The notes beneath the pieces are model-generated. The model did not search any database and had not been told where the DNA came from. It saw nothing but the letters and a program-made list of their open reading frames with translations. A stretch of DNA of 63,262 nt, from NCBI GenBank assembly GCA_035292605.1, contig DATDPT010000004.1:1-63262 (forward strand). Reading direction: 5' to 3'. Positions 3,865-22,285 of this stretch are shown here, one piece after another. The position numbers and the translations under genes are program-made. Numbering within the stretch: the stretch's first letter is position 1; each line of letters starts with the position of its first letter. Origin of the DNA: Acidimicrobiia bacterium. Lineage in GTDB: Bacteria; Actinomycetota; Acidimicrobiia; Spongiisociales; ZC4RG35.

Positions 3865-4944
3865 ATGACGATCGACCTCGGTGAACCGGACCAGGGCTGC
3901 TTGCTCATGGCTGACATCACCGGTTACACCGAGTACATGGCCGGAACCGAGTTGATGCACGCCCAGGACGTGGTCGCCGATCTGCTGGAGACCATCGTCG
4001 CCAGCATCGAGCCGCCGTTCCGCCTCTCGAAACTGGAAGGCGACGCCGCTTTCGCCTATGCCAATCAGGACACGCTCAGCATGTCGATGATGATGGACAC
4101 CGTCGAGTCGGCCTACTTCGCTTTCCAGAAGCGGCTTCGGGACGTCGTCCATTCGACCACCTGTGAGTGCAACGCATGTCTGCGAATCCCCAGCCTGGAC
4201 CTGAAGTTCTTCGTGCACAACGGGGAGTACGTCGTGCGGAGAATCGCCCGCTCCGAGGAGCTGACTGGGTCCGACGTCATCCTCGTCCACCGACTGGCCA
4301 AGGGCACCTCGGGCGCCGTGATCGCCAAGCCGGCATACGCCGTCTACACCAAGGCGACGTTTGACGCGATGGCGATGGATCCTTCGATTCTCGGGTTCCG
4401 GGCTCACACCGAGACCTTCTCCGACATTGGTGACGTCGACGTCTACATACAGGACCTCGCAGCTCGATGGGCCGTCGAACAGGAACGGAATCGCGATTAC
4501 GTCACCAGCGCAGAGGCCGTCTACGAGGTCAGCTTCGAAACCCCCGCACCGGCTTGGATGATCTGGGACGCCATCACCGACCCGGCGAAAAGGCTGCTCT
4601 GGCAACAGGGCGTCACCGGGGTCGAGGCCATCACCGGGGGGCGCCAAGGTGTCGGCTCGGTCAACCATTGCATGCACGGCCCCGATGTGGTTGTCGAACA
4701 TGTGGCTGACTGGAGGCCTTTCTCCTACCTAACCCTGCGTTATGACCGTCCAGGGATGGAGCAATGGGCCTGGACCTACCAGTTGGATTCCCTCGCCGCA
4801 GGCACCCGGCTCTCGGTCCGAGTTTCGGATCCGGGCGGCGAAATGTGGAGCCAAATAGGTGACGACGTTTCCCACACCATCGACGAGGCAGCCGCCAAAC
4901 TCGAGGCCCTGCTCGGCGAGCTGGTCGCGATGGCTCACGTCTGA
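3865..4944 (+). CDS. DUF2652-like N-terminal domain fused to an SRPBCC (polyketide-cyclase/START-like) C-terminal domain
   Basis: The N-terminus LLMADITGYTEYM...ELMHAQDVVADLLE...LSKLEGDAAFAY resembles the DUF2652 family as I remember it. The C-terminal about 150 aa (WDAITDPAKRLLWQ...VEHVADWRPF) looks SRPBCC. Confidence 0.55.
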   Translation: MTIDLGEPDQGCLLMADITGYTEYMAGTELMHAQDVVADLLETIVASIEPPFRLSKLEGDAAFAYANQDTLSMSMMMDTVESAYFAFQKRLRDVVHSTTCECNACLRIPSLDLKFFVHNGEYVVRRIARSEELTGSDVILVHRLAKGTSGAVIAKPAYAVYTKATFDAMAMDPSILGFRAHTETFSDIGDVDVYIQDLAARWAVEQERNRDYVTSAEAVYEVSFETPAPAWMIWDAITDPAKRLLWQQGVTGVEAITGGRQGVGSVNHCMHGPDVVVEHVADWRPFSYLTLRYDRPGMEQWAWTYQLDSLAAGTRLSVRVSDPGGEMWSQIGDDVSHTIDEAAAKLEALLGELVAMAHV

Positions 4945-4980
4945 TTCAGCCTGGACGGTCGGGGGACCGCCCCTTAGCCT

Positions 4981-7374
4981 TTGGTCGTGAGCCGACGACT
5001 TCTGTGGAGCCTGTCAATCGCGCTGCTGGCTGCAGCCTGCGCCGGCTCTGCCGAAGAACCACCTTCCGAGCCGAACGAGGAATCGGGTGACACCGCTTGG
5101 GAGACCGTGATCTCGGGGATCACCGAGAACGGGGTTCCGCTTCAGGTCGCGCTCGACGCATTCAGTCTCGCCATTGGCCCCTTGCCGGGTGTCGAGACGC
5201 CTGAGGGGCCGACTCAGGAGATCCGATCGGGCTCCGGAGCCCTGCGTTGGACCCTGGGTCATTGGGACGAGCTGACGCTGGAGCAACAGACTGCGATCGA
5301 GAGCTACCTGGATGTGGGCGAGCCCACTGGAGCCGGACCCGTCCTGGCAATGACCGGTCAGGTGCAAGCCGCCGAGCCCGACGAGCAGGTCCTCGTGGAA
5401 TTGATCGCCCAGGTCGAGGGCGTGATCGCGCAGAACCTGGGACGCGACCTCGGCGTCCCCATCGAATTGCATGTGGCTTCCGGCATGGACGGTTCCAAAT
5501 TCTTGGCCCTGACCACCGGTACCGATGCCAATGGAAAGTGGTTCGGGCCGATGGTGAAGTGCGAGATCTTCCTCACCAACAGCGGGAGCGAGCTCGCATC
5601 GAAGGTCGAGGCCGGCGGGGTGCCGGCCGCCCAGCTGACCGCCCTCATGGCCCATGAGGTCTTCCACTGTTTCGAGAGAGCGCTCAGCATCAATCTGGCC
5701 GAGACCTACACCCGGCCCCCGTGGGTGCTCGAAGGGCTCGCCGAGTGGGTCGGCGAAACCGTGGCCGGCGGACCGCAGACCATTACCTGGTCACGGTGGT
5801 TGACCGAGCCAACGCAATCCCTCTATACGAGGGAGTACACGGCGATCGGCTTCTACGCCCATCTCCAGGAGAACGGAGCCGACGTCTGGTCAACCATCGA
5901 CCACATCATCGAGGGCAGCGACGGGGGAAACGAGCCTGCCTACCTGACCGCGATCGGCGCCGCCGGCCCCGGCGTCCTCACCACCTGGGGCCCGGGCGTC
6001 TACCGCGACCCGACCCGGTCCCCGGAATGGGACCAGGACGGGCCCGGGATCACGCCGGAGAAGTACCCGCCGCGGGCTGATTTCCCCGAGGTGGCCAACG
6101 GCTCACAGTACGTGGCGGCCGCCGGGTCCCTAGCCGCCGACATCTGGGACACCGAGCTCAATGCCGAAGTGGTCACCCTGGGCGGCACCGGTTTCGGGAT
6201 GATCCTGCTTCCCGACGGCGCAGAGCTGGTCCTCGACGGCACCCTGACCGAGGTGCTGTGCACCAACCCCGAGGGCTGTTCCTGCCCCGAAGGAAGCCCC
6301 GGCGCGGGCACGGTGTTCCGGATCACCACCCCGGGGCCGGCCCACATCGGCCTCACCGGGCATCTCGAGGGGAGCCGGCTGGCGATCGGCGGCTGGAGCC
6401 TCGACGCCTTCTGTCAGAACCAACCGGAGCTGGCGGCCTGTCTGATCGGGCAATGGATGAGCGTTTTCTATGAGGCGGACAGCCAGGTGATCCTCCCCGG
6501 AACCGGCACCGGAGTCATGCTCAACATCGATGACACCGGTCGGGGCTCGATCGACTTCGACTCCTCGGTCCCCATCATGTCCCAGGTCGAAGGCGCTGAA
6601 GACGTTCCAGTCCGCATCGTACAGACCGGCCAGGCGCTGTTCGAGGTCACGCCGACCCTGGAAGGGGGAGTGATCGATAGCGCCGTCGGAGTCGGGTACT
6701 CGATCCATGCCGAGGTGGATCTGGGAGCGGGTTTCATCGAGGCCGGAGAAGAAGTGTCCCTCTCAGGGCCGAGCACCGGTCCGGGGGTCACCTTGACCTG
6801 CGACGGGGACACCCTGACCTGGACCGGAGCCGGCGGCATCGCCTCGTATGAGTTCTCCCGGCAATCCTCCACGCCGGAACCGATCCCCGAACCGCCGCCG
6901 GATGCGGTCCCCCTCGGGCCGGACAACGGTGAGGGCGAAGGCGGGGGCGGGGGGCTCCCCGAGCCACCGCCGGACTGGGGGCTGGGACTAGATGCCTGCT
7001 TGCTGTTGAGTCTGGAAGACGTCCAGGCGTATTCCCCTTCGGCCACCCAGCCCGCCGGCGAGGACGAGATCTCGACTCAGCTCCTCCACCAGTGCACCTA
7101 CATCCCGGCCTTCTCGCTTCAGGTGACCCCGCCCCAGCCCCCGGAGTTCACCGGCGACGCTGCCGAGGGGATCGGTCTCGAAGTGGTGCCGATCGAGGGG
7201 ATCGGAGACTGGGCCCAAGCCTTCGTCTATCCCGACAGCCAAGCCGTGGCCCTGGTTTCGGCGGGGAACGACCAGGGCACCGTCTCGATCACCTCCTACG
7301 AGCAGGTTGGGATGGGCACCCCGGAGTACGAGGCGCTCCTCGGGATCCTGGAGAAGGCGCTGGCGGGACTGTGA
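4981..7374 (+). CDS. Large secreted lipoprotein with a gluzincin (Peptidase_MA_2-like) metalloprotease motif
   Basis: Lipobox-like signal LLWSLSIALLAAAC-AGS. HEVFH (HExxH) is followed about 25 aa later by WVLEGLAEWVGE, matching the W-x-x-EG-x-A-E third-ligand pattern. A Pro/Gly-rich linker PEPIPEPPPD...GEGEGGGGGLPEPPPD precedes a separate C-terminal domain of about 130 aa. Confidence 0.6.
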   Translation: MVVSRRLLWSLSIALLAAACAGSAEEPPSEPNEESGDTAWETVISGITENGVPLQVALDAFSLAIGPLPGVETPEGPTQEIRSGSGALRWTLGHWDELTLEQQTAIESYLDVGEPTGAGPVLAMTGQVQAAEPDEQVLVELIAQVEGVIAQNLGRDLGVPIELHVASGMDGSKFLALTTGTDANGKWFGPMVKCEIFLTNSGSELASKVEAGGVPAAQLTALMAHEVFHCFERALSINLAETYTRPPWVLEGLAEWVGETVAGGPQTITWSRWLTEPTQSLYTREYTAIGFYAHLQENGADVWSTIDHIIEGSDGGNEPAYLTAIGAAGPGVLTTWGPGVYRDPTRSPEWDQDGPGITPEKYPPRADFPEVANGSQYVAAAGSLAADIWDTELNAEVVTLGGTGFGMILLPDGAELVLDGTLTEVLCTNPEGCSCPEGSPGAGTVFRITTPGPAHIGLTGHLEGSRLAIGGWSLDAFCQNQPELAACLIGQWMSVFYEADSQVILPGTGTGVMLNIDDTGRGSIDFDSSVPIMSQVEGAEDVPVRIVQTGQALFEVTPTLEGGVIDSAVGVGYSIHAEVDLGAGFIEAGEEVSLSGPSTGPGVTLTCDGDTLTWTGAGGIASYEFSRQSSTPEPIPEPPPDAVPLGPDNGEGEGGGGGLPEPPPDWGLGLDACLLLSLEDVQAYSPSATQPAGEDEISTQLLHQCTYIPAFSLQVTPPQPPEFTGDAAEGIGLEVVPIEGIGDWAQAFVYPDSQAVALVSAGNDQGTVSITSYEQVGMGTPEYEALLGILEKALAGL

Positions 7375-7431: not shown

Positions 7432-7665
7432 TCAGTCGATGTGGTCGGAACCCAGCAATGACTCGACAACTTCCTCGAGGACGATGGCCTGGGTTGGGCA
7501 GGCCGCCGCCACCTCGCGCAACACGTCGTCATCCACCGTGTTCTGGTCGAGCAACTCGGGCTTGAGGAAGTCGCCCTTTCTCCATTGGAAGGCAGAAGGT
7601 GCCAGGACGATGCAGCTGCCTGCACCGATGCAACGTCTGCGGTCGATGACAACTCTCACTGCCAT
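7432..7665 (-). CDS. Small ferredoxin (single-cluster, actinobacterial 3Fe-4S/4Fe-4S type)
   Basis: VVIDRRRCIGAGSCIVLAPSAF...AAACPTQAI fits the C-x5-C...CP ferredoxin pattern. The start codon overlaps the stop of the upstream regulator gene (ATGGCAGTGA). Confidence 0.8.
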   Translation of the reverse strand: MAVRVVIDRRRCIGAGSCIVLAPSAFQWRKGDFLKPELLDQNTVDDDVLREVAAACPTQAIVLEEVVESLLGSDHID

Positions 7666-10600
7666 GTGACACCTGTCTTGATCGCGTACTCGATCGCTTC
7701 GGACTCGGAGGCGACACCCAACTTGGTGAGGAGCTGGCCCACTTCGTCGGAACCCGCAGCTGCCACGCCGCCTGACGCCTGGCGGGCAGTCACCGATCCG
7801 GACGCCAGATCGCCCAGCAATCCGAGCTCCTCGTCGCTCAACTCGATGCCTTCGATCTCATCGGGCTGCCAAGCCTGAGACGGGTCGAATCCGACTATTT
7901 CGGCCAATTCGCGATGGATCGGGACATCGAACCACTTCGCGTTGATGTCGGGATCGGTCATCGACATGTTGATGAAGGAGAGGCCACCCAGGATCTCCGC
8001 GCTGAGGCCCGCCGCTTCCGGTTCGCCGGGTGCGATCAGGGTGCGTGCCGCTGCCCACAGTATGGGCAGATACAGGGAGAAGTAGGTCTCCCCATCGATG
8101 TCGAGAGCCGCCCGGCCCTCGTCGGCGGCGGTGACGGGGTCTCCTTCTGCTTGCGCCACCACGGCCAGGGCGGCATGGGCCACCGCCTCCCAGGGCAGTT
8201 TCCCGTTCATGCGGCGAACCATGGCCAGAGTCTCGGCGGCGGCATCCTTGGCCTTCTTTAGGGTCGCCTCATCGGCGTCGCGGGCTCCGATGCGGGCGCA
8301 CTCGATGGCCAAAGTCGCATAGGCGTCGCAGCGTCCTCCGAGGTTCTTCTGCCCGGCCAGCTCGGCAGCCCTTTCGAAATGGCGAACCATGGCTTCGACG
8401 TCATCTCGGGAGGCTTCGTGAGCACCCCGCCACATCTCCAAACGACGTGCCATCGAGGTGCTGGCCACCGACATGGCGGCACTGGCGGCGCGATCCAGCC
8501 ATGCTCCGCAGTCCTCACTGGCACCAATCGTCAGGGAGGCCATCGCCATCCCCCCGGCGGCGAGGCACTCCAACCACCGGTCTCCGAGGGCTCGGGCGGC
8601 ATCAAAGGCCTCGCGCCCCCGCTCCAGAGCTAGCCCAGGTTGGAGGTTGTGCCTCGCATAGGTGTGAATGCTGAACAGCATCAAGGCGTCGTCGACCGCT
8701 CTCTGGCTCTCGGTCACTTCACCTTGCCGGTTGTGGTGCAGCGCCCTGATGTGCTCGATCCGACCGGCCATGCCATTGGCCGTCGGATCGGTGACGTGGG
8801 CATACGCCATCGAGATCAGCGCCGACATCGAGCCCCGCCGGTCGCCGATCTCCTCATAGATGTGGAACGCTTCCTCGGCGAGCTCCTTCGTCTTGGCGAA
8901 CAGTGCCGGTGCTCGTTGCAGGATCTCGAGACGCGACGACCCTTCTGCCACTGCGGCCAGGACTCTCTGCTTCACCCTCCCCGACTCGATCACGGCCAGC
9001 TCGCGCAGCGCGTCGGCTTCCTTCGATCGGGCGCCGATCTCACGAGCGATCGACAAAGCCCGCAGGTACGCTTCTTCGGCTGCGTCGAGGTCGACCTCGA
9101 CGAGAGGCCAGTAACCCTCTCCGATCGGGCATCTGGTGATGGCCTGCCCCAACTCGAGGCAGGCGCCGAGCTCCAGCTCCAGATCGCCGGAAGTCTCTGC
9201 AGAGCTGCGCACGGCCCGGGCCAGATCGGCAGCCAGGTCACAATCCTCGTTGGCCCGGGCTGCGGAGGCCCTTCTCAGCTTCACCTCGGCGTCGAGGGCA
9301 GGGGAGTTGACCGCTGCGGTCAGGGCGTTCATCTCGGCCAGATTGGCGGCGCGCTCCATTCCCCGGTCGAGCAACTCCAGAGCATCATCTTTGACCCGGA
9401 GCATGTCGATTCGGTCGGTGGGCTCGGAGGCGGCGGGAAGAGTGCCGTCGATGAGACGAACCGCCTCCTCGGGGGCAAAGACATCCATGGCAGCCCGGGC
9501 CGCTTTCAGAGCGCTCGACACCGCCATCGCCTGGTCTCCGGCCTGAAGGGCGTGGTAGGCCAGCATGGACAGATTCTCGGTCCCTCCCTCTTCCGCCAGG
9601 GCTTCGGCGATGGCCCCATGGATGGCCCGTACTCGCTGTCGGGAGCTGAAGCCAAGCAACGATGCCCGGATCTGGTCATGGGAGAACGAGAAGTCGTAGC
9701 GGGATCCTTGTGGCTCCTCTGCGATCAGGCCGAGGTCGATGGCGTTCTTGAGGTTCTCGCCGATCTGCCAATCGGGCTTCGCAGGCGCGTCCTCCACCCG
9801 GGCCAACACCCGGGAGAGGTCGGAGAGACGAAACCGTCGTCCCAGGACCCCGGCGTCGGCGAGCAGTGACCGACTGTCCTCTGACAGCTGGGCGAGTCTT
9901 CGCTCGACCAGGGACTGGATTGAGGACGGCACCGCCGGTCCGCTGAGGCGAGTCATGGTCCATGTCCCGTCGATCAGCTGCAGGGCTTCGGCCTCCCGGT
10001 AGGCACGTGCCAGTTCCTCTATGAAGAACGGCACCCCTTCGGAACGGGCGTGGAGGCTCTCCAGCGTGGCCTCATCCACTGGAGCGCCGAGCAGGTTCTC
10101 GAGCAGTTCCCCGGTTTGGAGCCGGGTCAACCTTTGCAGTCTCAGCACCTGGGTCACCCGCATCCGGTCGAGGTCGGCGATCAGCTTCGACGCACCGCCA
10201 GAGGAGGAGTCGGAGTAGGGGCGGAGACTGATCAGCAGAAAGATGGGGCCCGAAGCCACGGTCCTCACCAAGTACCGGATCAGCTGGATGCTGTCATCGT
10301 CGGCCCATTGCAGGTCGTCGAACATCAGGAGCAGCGGACGCTCTCGAGTCAGGGCGAGGATCGTGGTTGCGACCTCATCGAAGGTCCGTAGCATCTGCTC
10401 CTGTGGGGAGAACCCTTCCCCACGCGGGGTCCTCCCGGCGATGGCCTCCTGGGCCCGGCTCAGTTGCTCCAACGCCATCGCCTGCCTGGCGATCGACGAC
10501 ATGTGCGGTGAAGTCAGCAGGGATCGGAACAGGAGGAATGGTCCCCGCAACTCCTCGTCGGCGGTGACGTCGAGCACCCAGAAGGGGCTTTCCCGCTCCG

Positions 10601-11366
10601 AAGCCATGTCCGCCGTGGCATCGAGCATCTTCGTCTTGCCGATCCCTGCCTCCCCCTCGAGAACGACCGCCCTGAGACCGGTACTGGGTGTCGCCTCGAG
10701 CTGCTCTTCGATGACCTTGAGCTCTCGGGCCCTGCCTATGACCGGACCCAGCGCTCGCGGCGATTCGAGGTCGAACGCAGCTTCTGAGGCGGCACGGGTC
10801 TCTTTGGTGGTCCGCCCCTCCGCGCCTTCCTTGTCCCTCCACAGAACCTCGAACAGCCGCCATCTCTCGGGAAAGCCCTTGAGCCAGAACAACCCGCGGT
10901 CGACGATCTTGGTGTCCCCCAGAGTGCCGGCAAGATCCTGGACGACCTGGGAGACAAGGATCTGGCCACCCTGGGCCTTGTCGGCGACCCTCGATGCGGC
11001 GTGAACCGCGGTTCCATGGGCGTCTCCTGCCGACTGGGTGACATCCCCACTGTTGAGCCCCATTCGAACCGAGAGCTGCATGTCGAGGTTGGACTCGTTG
11101 TGCTCCTGGATCGCTCTCTGAATCGACGCCGCGGCCTCGATCGCCTGATTGGCCGAACTGAACAGAGCCATGAACCCGTCACCCAGTGATTTGGTCTCGA
11201 TGGCCCCGGCGATCTCCAACCGTGAGCGGACCAGCTCGTCATGGAGGCGAATCACCTCATTGGCGGTGGCGTCACCGACTCTGACGCGCAAGTCAGTGGA
11301 ACCCTCCAGGTCCGTGAAGAGGATGGTGAAGGTTCCCTGCAGGCTCGGTGTCGCAACCTCACTCAA
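7656..11366 (-). CDS. Adenylate/guanylate cyclase domain - AAA/STAND ATPase - TPR - degenerate LuxR-like HTH regulator (1236 aa)
   Basis: TTG start. FTILFTDLEGSTDL...GDGFMALF is a class III cyclase domain. VLEGEAGIGKTKM is a Walker A motif and LLMFDDLQWADDDS a Walker B-like motif. Long helical TPR-like repeats follow, and the C-terminus LSDEELGLL...LLTKLGVASESEAIEYAI is LuxR-like. Confidence 0.85.
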   Translation of the reverse strand: MSEVATPSLQGTFTILFTDLEGSTDLRVRVGDATANEVIRLHDELVRSRLEIAGAIETKSLGDGFMALFSSANQAIEAAASIQRAIQEHNESNLDMQLSVRMGLNSGDVTQSAGDAHGTAVHAASRVADKAQGGQILVSQVVQDLAGTLGDTKIVDRGLFWLKGFPERWRLFEVLWRDKEGAEGRTTKETRAASEAAFDLESPRALGPVIGRARELKVIEEQLEATPSTGLRAVVLEGEAGIGKTKMLDATADMASERESPFWVLDVTADEELRGPFLLFRSLLTSPHMSSIARQAMALEQLSRAQEAIAGRTPRGEGFSPQEQMLRTFDEVATTILALTRERPLLLMFDDLQWADDDSIQLIRYLVRTVASGPIFLLISLRPYSDSSSGGASKLIADLDRMRVTQVLRLQRLTRLQTGELLENLLGAPVDEATLESLHARSEGVPFFIEELARAYREAEALQLIDGTWTMTRLSGPAVPSSIQSLVERRLAQLSEDSRSLLADAGVLGRRFRLSDLSRVLARVEDAPAKPDWQIGENLKNAIDLGLIAEEPQGSRYDFSFSHDQIRASLLGFSSRQRVRAIHGAIAEALAEEGGTENLSMLAYHALQAGDQAMAVSSALKAARAAMDVFAPEEAVRLIDGTLPAASEPTDRIDMLRVKDDALELLDRGMERAANLAEMNALTAAVNSPALDAEVKLRRASAARANEDCDLAADLARAVRSSAETSGDLELELGACLELGQAITRCPIGEGYWPLVEVDLDAAEEAYLRALSIAREIGARSKEADALRELAVIESGRVKQRVLAAVAEGSSRLEILQRAPALFAKTKELAEEAFHIYEEIGDRRGSMSALISMAYAHVTDPTANGMAGRIEHIRALHHNRQGEVTESQRAVDDALMLFSIHTYARHNLQPGLALERGREAFDAARALGDRWLECLAAGGMAMASLTIGASEDCGAWLDRAASAAMSVASTSMARRLEMWRGAHEASRDDVEAMVRHFERAAELAGQKNLGGRCDAYATLAIECARIGARDADEATLKKAKDAAAETLAMVRRMNGKLPWEAVAHAALAVVAQAEGDPVTAADEGRAALDIDGETYFSLYLPILWAAARTLIAPGEPEAAGLSAEILGGLSFINMSMTDPDINAKWFDVPIHRELAEIVGFDPSQAWQPDEIEGIELSDEELGLLGDLASGSVTARQASGGVAAAGSDEVGQLLTKLGVASESEAIEYAIKTGVTWQ

Positions 11367-15933: not shown

Positions 15934-17931
15934 TCATTCGGGCGAAGCGGCGATCATGTCGGCCTCGGCCACCGCACCCAGTCGCTCGAACTCCGCCAAT
16001 GCCGTCCTCAGCTCCATGTCCGCCAAGGTGCTCGCCCCGTCCTCGCGGTACGCACTGGCGAGATCGGCGTGGATCAGAGCCGCCTCGAAAGGCAGGCCGA
16101 GAGCATTGAACGTCTTCAACGCGTCTCTCAGGGCCTCCATCGCCTCAGCCGACTCTCCTCGCACCAAGGCAATCCTCCCGGCCCCGGCCCGCGCTTGGGC
16201 GGCGAACAGCTCCGACCGGGAAATCCGGCCGATCTCACGCAACTCCTCGACCCCGGTCTCTGCCTTGTCCAGCTCGCCGGCCTCGAGCGCAAGCTGGATG
16301 AGCGCAGGAAGGATCCGGGCCCGTGCCCAGGGGGTGAGACCGGGCGAACGCAGCGTCCGCTCGAGGAGATCGAGGCCGGAGGCGACATCACCGCGCCGTG
16401 CCAGGAGCACGGCGTATCCGGGCACCGGCTCACGGCCCCGGGTGAGTGCGTTCTGGAACGCCTCCTCGGCCTTGGTGTCGTCGCCGGCCCGCAGCCGCAT
16501 CTCCCCGTACTGATACCACGCCTCGCCGATCACGTCGGTGAGCATCCCCAGCTCGGTGGAGGCTCTCATCACCTCTGACTCGGCCTTGACCCACTCGCCC
16601 TTGTGCCACAGCAGCTCCGCCTTGAAGATGCGGCACACACCGGGGTAGGGGCCATGGTCGTTCTCAGCGCACCAGCGGTCGGCTGCCTCGCTCCACTGGC
16701 CGGCACGCCGGATGTCTCCGGTCTGATCGCACACCGCCAGCATGTTGCAGAAGCTGCGGCCGACCACCATCGGAGTCACATCACCGGCCATGGCGGCAAG
16801 CATGGCCTCGTCCATGAGAGCCATGCCCTCTTCCATCTCCCCCTTGGCCACCAGGATTCGCCCCTGATCCTGAAGGGCCAGGGCCTCGAGATTCCCATCG
16901 CCCTGGGCCCTGGCGATCTCCATCACCCGGCGCGACAGTCCGACGGCACGTTCGTAGTCATGGCCGCCATCGATCTCTCGCACCGTCTGCCAACGGAGCA
17001 GATGACCCCTGGCCACCGAGTCGGTGTCCGCATCATCCTCGAGCAGCCGTTCCGCCCTCCGCTCCCAGGCCCGGGACACGTCCGGCGCCAATGCGTGATT
17101 GTGAGCCTCGGAAAGCACCAGCGCCGCCATCGCCGCACTCTGTGGGTTCTCCTCGGTGAGGAATGTGTTGAACGCCGACTCGAAGCGGGCGGTCATCTCT
17201 TCGTGGCGCCCCAGCCACCAAAGGGCGTTGGCCAGCATGTCGTGCTGGGCGCCGGTGAGTGGCTGATCCTGTTCGATCCGGATCAGGAGATCCCGGGTCT
17301 CCTCCCATTTCTTGGCTTGAAAGGCGGCTCGGGCCTGGGCCGCCAACTGGGAGCTTTCCGGCTCGACCGTGCGGAGCGGGGAGAACTCCTCGGCGGTGTC
17401 GCCGACAACGACCTGGAAGATCTCTTCGGGGCGGTCGAGGTCCTTGAGGTGGTAGACACCGAGAGAACGCAGCCCGACACCATCGGGAAGGCTGTCGACC
17501 GACAGACGTTGGGTGGCCGACGAGACCAGGATCTGACCGCCATGCCCTGTCGCCATGAGTCGTGCCACCCGGTTCAGCGTGGGGCCCGAGTAGTCGCCGT
17601 CCTCGCTCCGGGCGGTCCCGGTGTGAATCCCGACCCGAACTCTGATTCCCGGATCGGTGGGCCAGGTTGCCTCGTTCAGAGCACGTTGGGCCTCTATCGC
17701 TGCCTCCAGCGCCGACACCGGGTCGGCGAAAGCGGCGTAGAAGGCATCGCCCACCGTCTTGAAGACAACCCCGCCGTGGGCAGCGAGGGCGTCACCGACG
17801 ATCTGGTTATGCACCGCCATTGCGGTCCGCATGGCTTCGGGTGTCTGTTCCCAATGCTGGGTCGAGCCTTCGATGTCGGTGAACAGGAAGGTGACCGCCC
17901 CATCGGGTAGGGGTCGACTCGGAGTGTTCAC
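15934..17931 (-). CDS. Adenylate/guanylate cyclase domain + TPR-repeat regulator (665 aa)
   Basis: GTG start. VTFLFTDIEGSTQHWE...FKTVGDAFYAAF...VRVGIHTG is a class III cyclase domain, followed by about 450 aa of TPR-like helical repeats. Confidence 0.85.
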   Translation of the reverse strand: MNTPSRPLPDGAVTFLFTDIEGSTQHWEQTPEAMRTAMAVHNQIVGDALAAHGGVVFKTVGDAFYAAFADPVSALEAAIEAQRALNEATWPTDPGIRVRVGIHTGTARSEDGDYSGPTLNRVARLMATGHGGQILVSSATQRLSVDSLPDGVGLRSLGVYHLKDLDRPEEIFQVVVGDTAEEFSPLRTVEPESSQLAAQARAAFQAKKWEETRDLLIRIEQDQPLTGAQHDMLANALWWLGRHEEMTARFESAFNTFLTEENPQSAAMAALVLSEAHNHALAPDVSRAWERRAERLLEDDADTDSVARGHLLRWQTVREIDGGHDYERAVGLSRRVMEIARAQGDGNLEALALQDQGRILVAKGEMEEGMALMDEAMLAAMAGDVTPMVVGRSFCNMLAVCDQTGDIRRAGQWSEAADRWCAENDHGPYPGVCRIFKAELLWHKGEWVKAESEVMRASTELGMLTDVIGEAWYQYGEMRLRAGDDTKAEEAFQNALTRGREPVPGYAVLLARRGDVASGLDLLERTLRSPGLTPWARARILPALIQLALEAGELDKAETGVEELREIGRISRSELFAAQARAGAGRIALVRGESAEAMEALRDALKTFNALGLPFEAALIHADLASAYREDGASTLADMELRTALAEFERLGAVAEADMIAASPE

Positions 17932-18273
17932 CCATGCGAATCTATACGGCTACCGCTGGTCAGAACGTCTGAGATGGCCGGGCTCGTCGAACACCCGTCT
18001 TGGCAGTGCTCGCCTCGACTCGGTGCCCACACGAGGACGAAGTCAGCGATCTGCTCCTAGCCGCGGATCCGGTGCGCCTGCCTCCACTGTATGGTGCAAC
18101 GGTTCTCCCCTGGTTACCTTCGGCGCGCTATGCCTTACGGGGAACAGGCCACTCGAAGAGGGCCGCCGGATGGTCAGTTCTGGCGGTACTCTCAGATCCT
18201 CAGTCCTCTTTCACCGACGACCCAATCTCGAAGAATTAGAGGTAAGCCTGAGAAGTACCACGGAGGTGGACGA

Positions 18274-18744
18274 ATGGCCAAAGGAAGCCCAAGCTATGCC
18301 GAGGCGCGGAACAGGCTCATAAGCGCCACCGCATCTCTACGGATCTACGGTGTCCCGCTTGACGGCGCCGAAGACGCCGACCGGTATCAAGTCTTTCGGT
18401 TATGCGGTTGGGGGATTGGTGTGGATGAGCGCCAGGAGGGTTCAGATCGGATCCTTCGCGTCAGGAAGGACCAAGTGACTGCCTCGGGCGAAGTTCCCGG
18501 CTTCGAACATCGCGGCCACCAAGTGCATTGGTATGAGGTTGATATGGGCGCTCATCTAGTGGAGGAGTTGTATGTGAGCATCCCGGCCTCGCAGATCGTA
18601 CCGATTCGGTTCGGCGGAGTGGTTGCTCAGATTCCTGTCACGATCGACCCAAATGGCCCGCGGCCGACCGAGACACCCCCTGGAACGATCGAGCCAAATG
18701 GGCCGCGGCCGACCGGGGCACCACCGGGCACTATTACCCCATAA
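18274..18744 (+). CDS. Hypothetical protein ending in a Pro/Thr-rich tandem repeat
   Basis: I prefer the ATG at 18274 (MAKGSPSYAE...), which is preceded by GGAGGTGGA, over the track start 18091. The C-terminus is DPNGPRPTETPPGT-IEPNGPRPTGAPPGT-ITP. I see no signal peptide. Confidence 0.5.
   Translation: MAKGSPSYAEARNRLISATASLRIYGVPLDGAEDADRYQVFRLCGWGIGVDERQEGSDRILRVRKDQVTASGEVPGFEHRGHQVHWYEVDMGAHLVEELYVSIPASQIVPIRFGGVVAQIPVTIDPNGPRPTETPPGTIEPNGPRPTGAPPGTITP
18643..18732 (+). repeat. 2 x 45-bp in-frame tandem repeat
   Basis: atcgacccaaatggcccgcggccgaccgagacaccccctggaacg / atcgagccaaatgggccgcggccgaccggggcaccaccgggcact, read directly. It encodes the PNGPRPT..PPGT units. Confidence 0.85.
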
Positions 18745-18828
18745 AGCCTCCGGTTGCCGCAGAATCAACCAGATCATTCGCGTGAGGGTCCTGACGCGTC
18801 GCCATCGAAGGTGCGTCTCTGAAATCGG

Positions 18829-19833
18829 ATGACTGATCAGCGTCTGAATCCCAGGGAACCTCCGCACCGATCTAGGTCAGCCGTGGCGACACTGTCGGAC
18901 TCATACTCAGAAGGAGTGATCGACCCTGATCCCTATGTCTTTGAGACCGTTGGAACGGTTAGCGTCGTCATCCCATCGATGAACGAGGGTGACAACCTCC
19001 TCGCGACCGTCTCTTCCATTGTGGACAACAGCTTCTATCCCGCATTCGAGGTGGTCGTTGTGGATGACGGCTCGACGGATGGCAGTGCCGACGAAGTAGA
19101 TCATGCCCACAGATCCGATCCCAGAGTCCGCGTACTTAAAACAGCGGGGATGGGTGTTGGTCGAGCGAGGAACTGGGGTGCTCTTCACGCCCGCGGAGAT
19201 GTGGTGATCTTCATCGATGCCCATTGCTACACCCCCCCTGGTTGGATGACGAGGCTCGTGGCTCCGCTGCAGAATCCGTCTGTGGGTCTTGTCGGCCCGG
19301 CCCTGGCCAGCGTCACCAATCCAGGCGGAAGCAAGGGGTACGGATTGACGTGGGATGACCCCAGTCTCTTGATGAGATGGCTTCCGGCCAGCCACGATGT
19401 TCCCTATCCAGTCCCCCTGTTGTGTGGCGCCTGTCAAGCGGTGAGGAGGTCCGACTTCATGCGAGTCGGGTCCTTTGACGCTGGGATGACGCGATGGGGC
19501 AGCGAAGACCATGAGCTCAGTCTTCGGTTCTGGCTCATGGGTTACGCAGTTCTGGTTCAACCCCAAGTCTCGGTCTACCACCTGTTTCGCGATCACCACC
19601 CGTATCACGTCGATTGGTACGGGGTGTTGTTCAACATTCTGAGAATGACCTTGCTACATCTGCGATTGGACCGCGCTCAAGCGGTTCTCGATCATTACCG
19701 CGAATTGACCGAGCTTCCTTCCAGCCTTCATGCCGTTCTTGGCAGTGATGTGCTGGTTCGTAGGGCGCAGCTGTCCCGTGCCCGTGTCCGGACCGACGAC
19801 TGGTGGTTCTCCGAATTCGGTGTCTGGACCTGA
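18829..19833 (+). CDS. GT-A glycosyltransferase (family 2/27-like) resembling the catalytic domain of polypeptide GalNAc-transferases
   Basis: VSVVIPSMNEG...EVVVVDDGSTDGS is the GT-A start. FIDAHC is a DxH motif. RWGSEDHELSLRFWLMGY compares with the Gal/GalNAc-T motif WGGENLEISFRVWQCGG, and VYHLFRDHHPY with VGHVFRKQHPY. No TM segment, signal peptide or lectin domain. Confidence 0.85.
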   Translation: MTDQRLNPREPPHRSRSAVATLSDSYSEGVIDPDPYVFETVGTVSVVIPSMNEGDNLLATVSSIVDNSFYPAFEVVVVDDGSTDGSADEVDHAHRSDPRVRVLKTAGMGVGRARNWGALHARGDVVIFIDAHCYTPPGWMTRLVAPLQNPSVGLVGPALASVTNPGGSKGYGLTWDDPSLLMRWLPASHDVPYPVPLLCGACQAVRRSDFMRVGSFDAGMTRWGSEDHELSLRFWLMGYAVLVQPQVSVYHLFRDHHPYHVDWYGVLFNILRMTLLHLRLDRAQAVLDHYRELTELPSSLHAVLGSDVLVRRAQLSRARVRTDDWWFSEFGVWT

Positions 19834-19966
19834 CGAACCACTCTGAAGCCCGGCGGTTCGCTCGGATTCGTGGCTGTCACCGGACGAGCTTGGTCGATGA
19901 CAGGCCTCGAACTTCGGCAGGTGACCGCACATCGTGGAGCAGATGCCGCCGTCGGAGCCGCGTCGC

Positions 19967-22285
19967 TCATGCATCGAGCCCGCTTCCCGACTCCCCCTCG
20001 GCCGGGGCTACCTCGCGGGTCGGGTCGTTGGCCAGGGCTTGCTCGGCGGCCCAGAATCCCAGTGCTCGATAGGCCTCGAACTGCTGGTGATCGAAGTTCT
20101 GGTTTATCGTCGAGTCGTTGGGGAAGCGGGCGTCGGCCTCCCAATGCGACCGAACCTGCCAGGGGGTGCTCGCGGTGACGCCGGTCTGGATGTAGCAGAT
20201 GTTGCCCTTCCGCTCCACGCCGTTTTCGTCCATGCGGTAGGTGAACTTGCCCCAGGCATAAGGCCGGCTGAGAAGCACCCCACCCCTGGCTTCGAGAGTG
20301 CGCCGGCGTCGCCAAGGCAGCATGAGCTGCGCCTCAACGTATCCCGCAGCGGCGTCGGCGTCGAGGGGCCGCATCTCGTGCAGGTTGATATCGAAGCGAA
20401 CCCCGAATTCGGCCATAGCGAGGGCCATCGCCTCTCCCAGCGTTGTAAAGACGCCGGGCTCAGCACCCGATCCATCGATGACGTAGATCGTCGTGCAACT
20501 CCTTCGCAAGAGCTCGACCAGGCCCAGGTTGTCGAAATGGCCCCCATCGGTGACGTACAGGAAACGATCCCGAATCGAGTGAATGGCGAAGATCTCCTTG
20601 AATAGGTATGACAGTCGGGGGCGCTCGAACCAGGGGTCATCGAGATCGGAGTCAACGAGGCTGCCCATCCATTGCGGGTTGGGCAGCCAAACTCCGAGTC
20701 GTACATTGGCGATCGCAAGGAACGAAGTGAGCCACCATCGGCTCCGCTTGCCCATGGCTGGAGACAGAGCGGCGCCAGAGATGGCGAGGGCTGCCGGAAC
20801 GGTGACATCGCGTCGCCTGACCTTGGAGTCCAGACGGTCGCGGTAGACCTTCGCGTCCATTTCCTTGATCTCGGGGTGGGGGCTTCCTATCCGGTCGCCG
20901 CTGAAGATGAATGGCGCTGCCCGCAGACTCGGTGCTGCCTTGGCTGTGTCGTAGATGTTGGCGGCGGCGCACGAGATGAAGCAAGGACCGGCGATTCCCC
21001 GCTGGTCGAGCTCCTCCCGGCCGAGAAAGTCAGTGACCTGGCCCCACGGGATCTCCCTGGCAGCCCTGTCTTCCACGCGTTCGACCGCGAACGCGTGGGC
21101 CAGCCGCCGTTTGTAGAAAGGATGCATCGACCAGGACCGCTGGTCGCTCACCAGCCATACGAGCGCGAGGACGACCGTCAAGGCCAGCCAGAGCGCTGGT
21201 TCAGGAAAGGTGATCATTCCCAACGGCGACGCATGGCCGGCGACGCCGTGCACGAGGGCGCCGTGGACGACCGCGGAAAGAGCCCATAAGAGCAAGAGAG
21301 GAACCACGAGGGCGGTCGCGATAACACCCCACCAGGTGGGTTCCACCGCGGCCAGCTGCTTCCGAACAGCCGTGGTGATGAAGGCGAATGCCCCACCCGC
21401 GGCAAAGAGCGCCAGCAGCCCTGTCGGCTCGTCCTGACCGACCCGATCAACCGTGAGAAATTCCGGGAGCAAGGCCGGGAGGCGGTCGTAGAAGAGCCAG
21501 ACCGAAAAGGGGAGAACAACAAGGACGACAAAGGCCGTGGTGGCCACCCACATCATGGCAGCCACGAAGAGCAGCCACTGCTCGTACCTGTTGTCGTCGT
21601 TCGTGATCATCGAAGTCAGCGACAGGAGTCCGCTTAAGAACGCGAGACCAAGGGGGAGAAGAATGGCGATCCAGTGGGCCGGTGACAGAGTGAAGTGGAT
21701 GCCTCCGTCGGTGACGAACCCCGGAGTCATCACCTCATATAGGAACCACCCAACCGGGCGGAGGATGACGAAGAGGCCGAGAAAGACGAGAGCCGCGTTG
21801 ACAGAGATGCCGAGGATCAGGCGGCCGAGAAGCCGCATCTTTTGCCTCATCGAGTACGAGAGGAAGGCGCTCCGCTTCCGGATCCACTCCTCCTCCGGAG
21901 TTCCGGCCGCCAGCGGTGGAGCTTGAGTGCCGGCGGTGCCGGGGGGGGAAGCGAACACGCCACGTGAGCGGGTCATCTCATAGGCCCCAGCCAGATATCC
22001 ACCCCCGGACACTGCGCTCAGGAACCGAGCGCCGCCGGGCGGACCAACGATGCCCCCCTCCTGAAGAGCCTGGAGGGCGCCCATGGCGACCGAGGCCGAC
22101 CGGATCCCTCCGCCCGAGAAGCAGACACCGATGCGCTCTTCGTCCACTTCCGGTGGGGCTTCCACCTGCGACTGGACGATCTGTTGCTCCCACCCACCGG
22201 ACTTGGCGAGGTCGATCCCAAGGAGCTTCGTCGAGGCCTTCGACGACTCGTCGGGCCGCACCTCATAGTCGCTCGACTCAGCCAT
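19967..22285 (-). CDS. cPLA2/patatin-like serine lipase with a polytopic membrane insertion inside the catalytic domain
   Basis: GVCFSGGGIRSA is a GGGxR oxyanion motif. FLSAVSGGGYLAG is the nucleophile-elbow region. About 240 aa of hydrophobic helices follow (LILGISVNAALVFLGLFVIL ... LWLALTVVLALVWLV). Then YVTDGGHFDNLGLVELLRR supplies the catalytic Asp motif. Confidence 0.8.
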   Translation of the reverse strand: MAESSDYEVRPDESSKASTKLLGIDLAKSGGWEQQIVQSQVEAPPEVDEERIGVCFSGGGIRSASVAMGALQALQEGGIVGPPGGARFLSAVSGGGYLAGAYEMTRSRGVFASPPGTAGTQAPPLAAGTPEEEWIRKRSAFLSYSMRQKMRLLGRLILGISVNAALVFLGLFVILRPVGWFLYEVMTPGFVTDGGIHFTLSPAHWIAILLPLGLAFLSGLLSLTSMITNDDNRYEQWLLFVAAMMWVATTAFVVLVVLPFSVWLFYDRLPALLPEFLTVDRVGQDEPTGLLALFAAGGAFAFITTAVRKQLAAVEPTWWGVIATALVVPLLLLWALSAVVHGALVHGVAGHASPLGMITFPEPALWLALTVVLALVWLVSDQRSWSMHPFYKRRLAHAFAVERVEDRAAREIPWGQVTDFLGREELDQRGIAGPCFISCAAANIYDTAKAAPSLRAAPFIFSGDRIGSPHPEIKEMDAKVYRDRLDSKVRRRDVTVPAALAISGAALSPAMGKRSRWWLTSFLAIANVRLGVWLPNPQWMGSLVDSDLDDPWFERPRLSYLFKEIFAIHSIRDRFLYVTDGGHFDNLGLVELLRRSCTTIYVIDGSGAEPGVFTTLGEAMALAMAEFGVRFDINLHEMRPLDADAAAGYVEAQLMLPWRRRRTLEARGGVLLSRPYAWGKFTYRMDENGVERKGNICYIQTGVTASTPWQVRSHWEADARFPNDSTINQNFDHQQFEAYRALGFWAAEQALANDPTREVAPAEGESGSGLDA

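Follow-up and report, generated by a model that had tools for sequence, protein, structure and literature searches.

Introduction

Among described glycosyltransferases that act on proteins, the Skp1 GlcNAc-transferase Gnt1 is a soluble cytoplasmic enzyme that has no lectin domain and modifies one dedicated protein. The DxH variant of the metal-binding DxD motif is characteristic of the glycosyltransferase families GT27 and GT60 (PMC7185993), and in mouse T1, a polypeptide GalNAc-transferase (ppGalNAc-T) of GT27, the Mn2+ ligands are Asp209, His211 and His344 (PMC4202792). The GT27 sequon is T/S-P-x-P, in which the Pro at +3 is a conserved feature that is read by a conserved pocket, and residues F280, W282 and F361 of GalNAc-T2 form the pocket for the Pro at +1 (bioRxiv 10.1101/2020.06.25.171371). 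Here we describe a two-gene locus from an Acidimicrobiia bacterium, located in a window of 63,262 nucleotides (contig DATDPT010000004.1; the window is the whole stretch of DNA that was analyzed), in which a gene for a 156-residue small protein (SP, P0121) with a Pro/Thr repeat tail precedes a glycosyltransferase gene on the same strand. The transferase is a soluble, ppGalNAc-T-like GT-A glycosyltransferase, and whether one goes by sequence, profile or fold, the solved structures closest to it all belong to GT27. Comparison with related loci suggests that SP is its substrate.

The transferase resembles the catalytic domain of GT27 enzymes

The transferase open reading frame (ORF) contains VSVVIPSMNEG, EVVVVDDGSTDGS, RVRVLKT..G.GRARN, FIDAHC, RWGSEDHELSLRFWLMGY and VSVYHLFRDHHPY. 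The strongest Pfam match is Glycos_transf_2 (1e-33), and Glyco_transf_7C is matched above its cut-off over residues 190-244 (7.8e-8; 32.3 bits vs a cut-off of 23). When all PDB chains are searched with phmmer, the first nine matches are ppGalNAc-T, i.e., T10 (3e-22) and T1 (2e-21), then T4, T12, TgT3, PGANT9 and T7, at identities of only 22-27%. In these alignments FIDAHC lies opposite FLDSHC/FLDAHC, trWGsEdhELSlRfWlmGy opposite iWGGENLEISFRIWQCGG, RWGSEDHELSLRFWLMGY opposite the WGGENLEISFRIWQCGG motif, and vyHlFRdhhPY (YHLFRDHHPY) opposite vGHVFRKATPY; the Gal/GalNAc-T motif WGGENxExSxRxW is matched by RWGSEDHELSLRFW. A family profile of 29 members and 298 positions, searched against the PDB, scores 150 bits with TgGalNAc-T3 (5.5e-43; profile positions 7-292), and GT27 chains fill the top of the ranking, the sole non-GT27 entry being a chondroitin synthase whose best stretch covers the N-terminal half only. 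The next unrelated enzyme scores 82 bits, and there is no SunS-type chain among the PDB sequence matches obtained with phmmer or with the family profile.

The predicted structure leads to the same relatives. All of the top 50 Foldseek matches of the AlphaFold model (predicted local distance difference test, pLDDT, 89.8; predicted TM-score, pTM, 0.88) are ppGalNAc-T, with TM values of 0.70-0.78 over ~315 columns and E values down to 3.5e-22, and in this predicted model the match takes in the GT27 catalytic domain including its C-terminal helical part. By alignment, Asp209, His211 and His344 of mouse T1 are matched by D130, H132 and H251, which do not vary among the 29 family members; G224, E226, E229, R233 and F253 are likewise invariant in the family alignment.

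The protein stops after the catalytic domain. Pfam yields no lectin-domain match in the 334 residues, and the 29 aligned relatives all measure ~296-300 aa; a ricin-type lectin domain is absent. No membrane-spanning segment is predicted, because the top Kyte-Doolittle average over 19 residues is 1.08. The conserved part of the protein begins near residue 41, and since the first ~40 residues are unconserved in homologues and poorly modeled (low pLDDT), the true start may be downstream of that of the longest ORF; the database gene call starts at GTG 18883 and gives 316 aa. No NCBIfam model reaches its cut-off, the best match being MftF (TIGR03965) with 4e-31 over residues 17-256 and 108 bits vs a cut-off of 280. 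An MftF-like role was set aside, with the score below cut-off and no mft genes nearby. We do not file the transferase as a GT27 member, because it lacks both the lectin domain and a membrane anchor and the identity is so low. It could be related just as plausibly to GT60, the family that includes the cytoplasmic Skp1 GlcNAc-transferase.

SP combines a folded domain with a conserved repeat tail

SP matches no Pfam or NCBIfam model. It has homologues in P0122 (69% identity), P0123 (54%) and the ORF at 4547-4984 of locus L001, and its ratio of nonsynonymous to synonymous substitution rates (dN/dS), calculated against the L003 copy with synonymous sites nearly saturated, is about 0.08; residues 1-118 give 0.09 and the tail 0.07. 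With such low ratios, and with homologues that are 54-69% identical, the gene is real, beyond chance, and its tail is under as strong a constraint as the domain. In the AlphaFold model residues 8-108 form one helix and a seven-stranded sheet (pLDDT >90 over residues 20-100), a fold without a match in the PDB (best E 0.23), and the tail is predicted to be disordered (pLDDT 50-60).

The two tandem units of the tail encode PVTIDPNGPRPTETP and PGTIEPNGPRPTGAP. Tandem Repeats Finder reported nothing on 18000-20000, which is unsurprising for only two diverged copies. Twelve tail positions are invariant in five homologues (P121, V122, T123, I124, P126, G128, R130, P131, P135, P136, T138 and P141), and T123, T138 and T153 are each followed by I/V-x-P. 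The number of units differs between relatives, from one in L001 and two in the window to three to five in P0126 and P0135.

The gene that immediately follows a close SP homologue is in every case one of the closest transferases (63-67% identity), as observed in L003, L001/L002 and L004/L005. P0135, a more distant SP relative whose tail consists of five PTISPEGPI units, is encoded immediately downstream of the gene for a transferase that belongs to another lineage (L091), so the linkage survives a change of both gene order and enzyme lineage. The pair is kept in five distinct SP-type loci with both gene orders represented, and a small precursor-like gene adjoins the enzyme in the window, in L001-L005 and in L091. 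No prolyl hydroxylase gene adjoins any inspected pair. A leader protease or exporter does not adjoin the pair in the window either, and an ABC transporter is nearby only at L091, where it (1161-2884) and a short protein-L-isoaspartate O-methyltransferase-like gene (5912-6382) adjoin the reversed pair. The latter gene type is also seen in ATP-grasp systems for peptides that are made ribosomally and modified after translation (RiPPs).

Thr repeats with Pro at +3 accompany the wider enzyme family

The transferase family has 1713 homologues, typically of 296-298 aa, from metagenomes and from genomes labeled Methylomirabilis, Phycisphaerae, Oscillochloris, Rhodovulum and Thalassococcus; where source annotations name them, it is as a generic GT2 or cell-wall enzyme. 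For neighborhood analysis 33 metagenomic loci were gathered by C-terminal enzyme alignment and supplemented with exact look-up loci (those with a species name being Rhodovulum sp. P5 and Desulfobacter hydrogenophilus), and all their ORFs were scanned with hidden Markov models of the enzyme, the SP domain and a helix-hairpin-helix (HhH) domain. A scan of genome contigs returned only distant GT2 genes (best identity 34%), the matches being swamped by the generic pattern VVDDGSTD.

In the main clade of the family, an ORF ends at the transferase start or overlaps it at every locus for which 150 nt or more of upstream sequence are available. These partners are built from a variable N-terminal part (IPT/TIG, PA14, Big_1, a small uncharacterized domain, or an N-terminus of the phage-tail-cluster type), P/T tandem repeats and a C-terminal HhH domain; Pfam calls the PT repeat in several of them, and HHH_5. 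Their repeats include ~25 PTIR/PTVR units (L102), APTQAPTS (L104), GPTF (L112) and PPTL/VPTI (L092). The sole exception in the clade, L100, has a frame-broken remnant of the HhH-partner domain. In a third clade (L114-L119, L122/123) the partner is a downstream BNR/sortilin-like protein that opens with GTNRPR x5, GTDRPH x6 or GTPRP repeats. Thr-bearing tandem-repeat neighbors thus occur in three unrelated architectures across the family, and the enzyme tree sorts by partner type, save that SP-type partners go with two lineages. A shared N-terminal domain of SP and the small HhH partners was considered and dropped, at an hhalign probability of 0.5%.

What these repeats have in common is the position of Pro relative to Thr. 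In 24 non-redundant partners, 171 of 238 repeat Thr residues (72%) have Pro at +3, and the per-protein mean is 0.73, compared with 0.29 +/- 0.04 (maximum 0.42) in composition-preserving shuffles (n=1000). At least half of the Thr residues are in T-x-x-P in 19 of the 24 partners. The motif is not a by-product of one repeat type, because it is seen at repeat periods of 4, 5, 6, 9 and 15, and one Thr per repeat unit is constant across periods 4 to 15.

Several of these loci have further features. In Rhodovulum sp. P5 (L010, CP015039, 1591-12458) the transferase and its HhH/PT-repeat partner stand amid a P2-gpI-like/NHL tail protein, a collagen-repeat/beta-propeller protein and an AAA ATPase, a setting that resembles the distal portion of a cluster for a phage-tail-like structure (contractile injection system). 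The partner N-terminus ..FFDRQ.L...DLN.. found there is also present in the partners of L109/L110, L113, L120, L092 and L112. Two tandem transferase paralogues follow a single HhH partner in L006 (8001-9831), L008 (3776-5646), L096 (1065-2927), L099 and L107, and L006 and L008 also have a large Ser/Thr kinase-WD40 gene in convergent orientation to these paralogues. At L004 the gene after the SP/transferase pair (1876-2904) is a weak BNR_2 match that recalls the BNR/sortilin-like partners of the third clade.

The SP domain also heads predicted ATP-grasp-modified precursors

A profile of the SP N-terminal domain, searched against 1.8 billion representative proteins, finds the domain in 56 representatives with unrelated tails; a further protein search with the profile added only four more members. 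The N-terminal part is conserved in the alignment and the C-terminal tails are wholly different, which is a leader/core-like pattern. The tails comprise Pro/Thr repeats, Pro-rich stretches without Thr (PIIIPLDPP), Cys-rich sequences and ..W.Q.Y..TRYDP...D..GADCD endings. An ATP-grasp maturase of ribosomal peptides (TIGR04187 at 2.7e-20; Pfam ATPgraspMvdD) is encoded directly after each of the three inspected members that have YDP..D tails, i.e., P0142 in L127, P0151 in L130 and P0181 of Desulfobacter hydrogenophilus (CP036313; L128 6001-7840), and a Cys-rich member has no transferase neighbor. We regard L127, L128 and L130 as predicted graspetide-type loci, in which the same ~110-aa folded domain precedes a W.Q.Y..TRYDP...D..GADCD core; no NCBIfam or Pfam model covers these precursors.

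A second, independent link of the domain to glycosyltransferases is provided by P0145 (520 aa), a fusion protein in which the SP domain (residues 47-137) precedes a Glycos_transf_1 domain at the C-terminus (GT4; Pfam 2.7e-12). P0141 (1830 aa) contains 13 HCBP_related repeats and six matches to positions 73-129 of the SP profile; this repeat and part of the SP domain may be related.

NHLP and Nif11 leaders are likewise common to different RiPP classes. Shared by varied tails and several enzyme types, the SP domain behaves as a large leader or recognition module, and since it also heads predicted graspetide-type precursors, the pair in the window looks like a precursor with its tailoring enzyme and not like a mucin system.

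Layout and flanks of the locus

The coordinates of the locus are given in Table 1. The two genes form a same-strand pair that is flanked on both sides by unrelated genes of the opposite strand. A scan of 17800-20100 revealed no promoter-like sites, and the sole terminator-like site lies within the transferase gene; SP and the transferase are therefore probably on one transcript, the spacer between them being free of either kind of site.

Table 1 Features of the SP/transferase locus, with positions in the window
Feature	Position	Strand	Evidence or remark
Upstream flank: adenylate-cyclase/TPR regulator	15934-17931	-	
Shine-Dalgarno-like GGAGG	18262-18266	+	7 nt before SP ATG; read from sequence
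SP gene (P0121), 156 aa, candidate acceptor or precursor	18274-18744	+	Homologues adjoin family transferases
Folded N-terminal domain of SP, residues 1 to ~108	18274-18597	+	AlphaFold; leader-like or recognition domain
Two 45-nt tandem units (15 aa)	18634-18678, 18679-18723	+	Direct-repeat search, 84% identical
Thr123 codon (T-I-D-P), candidate O-glycosylation site 1	18640-18642	+	Invariant in five homologues; Pro at +3
Thr138 codon (T-I-E-P), candidate O-glycosylation site 2	18685-18687	+	Invariant in five homologues; Pro at +3
Partial third unit PGTITP	18724-18741	+	
Thr153 codon (T-I-T-P), candidate O-glycosylation site 3	18730-18732	+	Invariant in three homologues having second unit; Pro at +3
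Spacer between SP gene and transferase gene, 84 nt	18745-18828	+	Promoter/terminator scan
Transferase gene, soluble GT-A glycosyltransferase, longest ORF 334 aa	18829-19833	+	Pfam, homologues, model
D130-A-H132, DxH metal-binding motif	19216-19224	+	Aligned to DSH/DAH of GalNAc-T10, T1
W223-GSEDHELSLRF-W235, Gal/GalNAc-T-like motif	19495-19533	+	Aligned to WGGENLEISFRIW of T1
His251 in YHLFR, candidate third metal ligand (C-His)	19579-19581	+	Aligned to His of GHVFR in T1, T10
Downstream flank: 772-aa protein	19967-22285	-	No Pfam match, even at E 0.1

In the window no sugar-nucleotide, flippase, polymerase, protease or transporter gene adjoins the pair, nor does a radical-SAM, peptidase or other mycofactocin-type gene. 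Polysaccharide-cluster genes are also absent from its vicinity, and a role in such a cluster was set aside. The G+C content is 0.598 in the 2-kb bin 18001-20000, compared with 0.63-0.66 in the neighboring bins, and in L001 (3334-4368) and L003 (114-287) the homologous pairs have integrase/transposase (rve) genes or fragments of them at their flanks; in view of this dip and of the rve genes at the two other loci, the cassette may be mobile.

By eye, the downstream 772-aa ORF shows patatin-like motifs (GGGIRS, DGGHFDNLG) and several hydrophobic stretches. The upstream flanking gene and a further minus-strand gene at 7656-11366 encode large regulators in which an adenylate/guanylate cyclase domain at the N-terminus precedes AAA_16 or TPR, and they are unrelated to the pair.

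Discussion

On the evidence of comparative genomics, the pair is probably, with considerable room for error, a self-contained unit for the cytoplasmic production of a glycosylated protein, in which the enzyme modifies Thr residues of the SP tail. SP would be made ribosomally, and its folded N-terminal domain is most likely a recognition or leader-like module that, judging from its leader-like distribution, may dock the substrate. The enzyme would bind a UDP-sugar, most plausibly that of a hexosamine or hexose, together with a divalent metal ion through the aligned and invariant residues D130, H132 and H251. Transfer of the sugar to the hydroxyl group of Thr123, Thr138 and Thr153 would take place in the cytoplasm, and the enzyme would recognize the Pro at +3 in a manner similar to that in which ppGalNAc-transferases of animals recognize T/S-P-x-P. 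We assign the reaction to Thr and to the cytoplasm because the two genes are linked, T-x-x-P partners occur family-wide and signal peptides are absent.

A first-pass annotation, made from the letters and ORFs alone, had described the transferase as tracking the catalytic domain of ppGalNAc-T and SP as its dedicated mucin-like acceptor. As regards the enzyme, its description agrees with the present data: GT27 enzymes head the PDB sequence, profile and Foldseek searches, the motif blocks that it quoted are present and aligned with those of T10 and T1 (FIDAHC, RWGSEDHELSLRFWLMGY, the YHLFR region), lectin domain and membrane anchor are absent, and the comparison with the GalNAc-T fold that it proposed retrieves that fold alone among the top 50 matches. 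Its refuting alternative, an enzyme of a polysaccharide-type GT2 clade with the motifs unaligned, is at odds with their alignment to GT27. The features that it read in the upstream ORF, i.e., a ribosome-binding site, a stop 84 nt before the transferase ORF and a 2 x 45-nt repeat, were also recovered. In the comparison across genomes that it had proposed, the ORF is conserved and linked in relatives, with the order reversed at one locus, and the repeat number varies. The proposal of a dedicated acceptor is strengthened by this linkage and by the +3-Pro Thr repeats across the family. The pairing is well supported; the mucin-type character, GalNAc as the sugar and the sites that it named are not. 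The Thr of 'RPT', which the annotation had stressed as the acceptor, is replaced by Pro in P0123, and the conserved residues are instead T123, T138 and T153 in T-I/V-x-P; and three conserved Thr residues on a 156-aa cytoplasmic protein hardly make a mucin.

Several observations weigh against Thr glycosylation of the tail. The loci inspected number a few dozen, compared with 1713 homologues, and the T-x-x-P count was made on repeat stretches chosen by eye, in which units of one protein are non-independent observations. Pro at +1 of the repeat Thr is not enriched (0.20 vs 0.29 expected), and the partners in L010, L110 and L113, with PTLFT units, do not fit T-x-x-P. The SP relatives P0129, P0130 and P0139 have PIIIPLDPPP-type repeats with neither Thr nor Ser, and the contig of P0130 (L125) is too short to show neighbors. 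The pair in the window comes without a protease, exporter or secretion signal, and the top NCBIfam match, below cut-off as it is, is to an enzyme that glycosylates a small molecule and not a protein.

The last point bears on an alternative that we consider unlikely, namely that the enzyme glycosylates a small molecule, a lipid, a glycan or a processed fragment, as MftF does, and that SP is an adaptor, chaperone or regulator. The MftF match is strong in E value, though far short of its cut-off score, and a well-folded SP domain that occurs with several enzyme types, including ATP-grasp and the GT4 fusion, and in some relatives with Thr-free tails, would suit such a helper. However, the three partner architectures have in common a Thr repeat with Pro at +3 and not a folded domain, the SP domain and the N-terminal domains of the small HhH partners being dissimilar by hhalign; no radical-SAM, peptidase or mycofactocin-type gene adjoins the pair, and the nearest solved relatives are protein O-glycosyltransferases. 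SP might also be the substrate at a residue other than Thr, i.e., at (hydroxy)proline as with Gnt1 on Skp1, or in the folded domain with the tail as a linker. The DxH motif of GT60 and its grouping with GT27 (PMC7185993), the cytoplasmic location that the enzyme has in common with Gnt1, and the rank of Pro as the commonest and best conserved tail residue, which persists in the Thr-free PIIIPLDPP repeats, all speak for this. We nevertheless judge it improbable: a prolyl hydroxylase gene is missing next to the inspected pairs, a single Thr is kept in each unit whether the period is 4 or 15, and T123 and T138 are invariant in the five homologues, as is T153 in the three that have the second unit.

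Still less credit is due to the notion of an ordinary polysaccharide-type or cell-wall GT2 enzyme that stands beside an unrelated small ORF by chance. It agrees with the labels of the homologues, e.g., 'glycosyltransferase involved in cell wall biosynthesis', and with the broad Glycos_transf_2 model as the strongest Pfam match, but it does not explain an adjacency kept at five SP-type loci whichever of the two genes comes first, nor the near-universal Thr-repeat pairing in at least 30 other loci. Flippase, polymerase and sugar-nucleotide genes are not found nearby, and the motifs align with GT27.

The preferred reading, glycosylation of SP at its tail Thr residues, can be extended to a broader one that we hold only tentatively and think rather doubtful as a whole. 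According to it, a widespread bacterial cytoplasmic O-glycosylation relies on a lectin-less relative, possibly a forerunner, of GT27, each enzyme being tied to a neighbor with T-x-x-P, and the acceptor in the window would be a new RiPP-like precursor with a leader shared with graspetides and a glycosylated proline-rich peptide as product. More speculatively, the main clade's long (PTxx)n partners might form the cores of heavily glycosylated fibrils like the environmental TLP-4 glycofibril, by analogy with its PT/Sxx tetrapeptide core, for which no gene or enzyme is known (PMC11725842); the similarity is a formal one.

The system is widespread and coherent and apparently undescribed. If confirmed, it would be a clear bacterial counterpart of the mucin-type initiating enzymes of animals and apicomplexans, with a proline-guided logic of Thr acceptor choice, and would bear on the origin of GT27. 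It would also offer a compact two-gene system, a soluble enzyme and an encoded acceptor tag, for protein glycosylation in the bacterial cytoplasm, and would establish a new folded leader-type domain common to glycosylated and ATP-grasp-modified ribosomal products.

Comparison with known systems

With the enzymes of GT27 (human GalNAc-T1, T2, T10 and T12, Drosophila PGANT9, Toxoplasma GalNAc-T3) the window enzyme shares the GT-A domain, DxH with a C-terminal His, and the Gal/GalNAc-T motif. In GT27 acceptors the Thr residues belong to tandem repeats rich in proline and have Pro at +3, and the same +3 Pro is found in the candidate partners, although the Pro at +1 of the GT27 sequon is not enriched in them. 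The window enzyme differs from GT27 in having neither a ricin-type lectin domain nor a type II membrane anchor, in being bacterial, cytoplasmic and outside the secretory pathway, and in that its candidate acceptor is encoded next door. GT60, which comprises Skp1 Gnt1 of Dictyostelium and Toxoplasma and the polypeptide alpha-GlcNAc-transferases of Trypanosoma and Dictyostelium and was compared by description only, likewise has DxH and belongs to the same GT-A clade as GT27 (PMC7185993); however, Gnt1 requires a prolyl hydroxylase partner, and pairs of the window type have none alongside.

Among peptide-modifying systems, the glycocins (SunA/SunS, ThuA/ThuS and GccF/GccA, with a GT2 S/O-glycosyltransferase) also have a ribosomal precursor gene adjoining a soluble GT-A enzyme and are glycosylated in the cytoplasm, and their precursors, too, consist of a conserved N-terminal and a variable C-terminal part. 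They differ in their short leaders, Cys-rich helical cores, and exporter/protease and thiol-disulfide genes within the cluster, whereas SP has as its 'leader' a ~110-aa folded domain and a Pro-rich core without Cys, with no exporter adjoining. Graspetides (ATP-grasp, microviridin-type) are connected with the window through the SP domain, which is common to the proteins directly before MvdD/TIGR04187-type maturases at three predicted loci, but SP has a Pro/Thr repeat tail in place of a Thr/Ser/Asp/Glu-rich core, and a glycosyltransferase as neighbor in place of an ATP-grasp enzyme. MftF, a GT2-type enzyme as well, works within a RiPP-derived pathway; it acts on a small molecule and not on polypeptide Thr, and the window is devoid of mftA-E genes.

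Cytoplasmic transferases encoded beside repeat-rich substrates are also known from the serine-rich repeat adhesins with GtfA/GtfB, from AIDA-I/TibA with their heptosyltransferases, and from HMW1 with HMW1C. These bacterial pairs differ in enzyme family (GT4, GT9-like and GT41), in acceptor residues and motifs, and in that the substrates are large secreted adhesins with export machinery. In the literature on bacterial GT27-like enzymes, glycosylated RiPPs and PT-repeat glycosylation, the coverage of which was incomplete so that this is absence of evidence only, we found no description of the pairing, and neither the enzyme family nor the T-x-x-P partners in three architectures nor the folded leader-like domain were found in the literature or the Pfam and NCBIfam models searched. 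The statement in the first-pass annotation that no prokaryotic system of this kind was known to it is too broad, since dedicated transferase-substrate pairs (GtfA/B, the heptosyltransferases, the glycocins) and glycosylated RiPPs are known already; what may be new in the locus described here is the enzyme family together with the type of acceptor.

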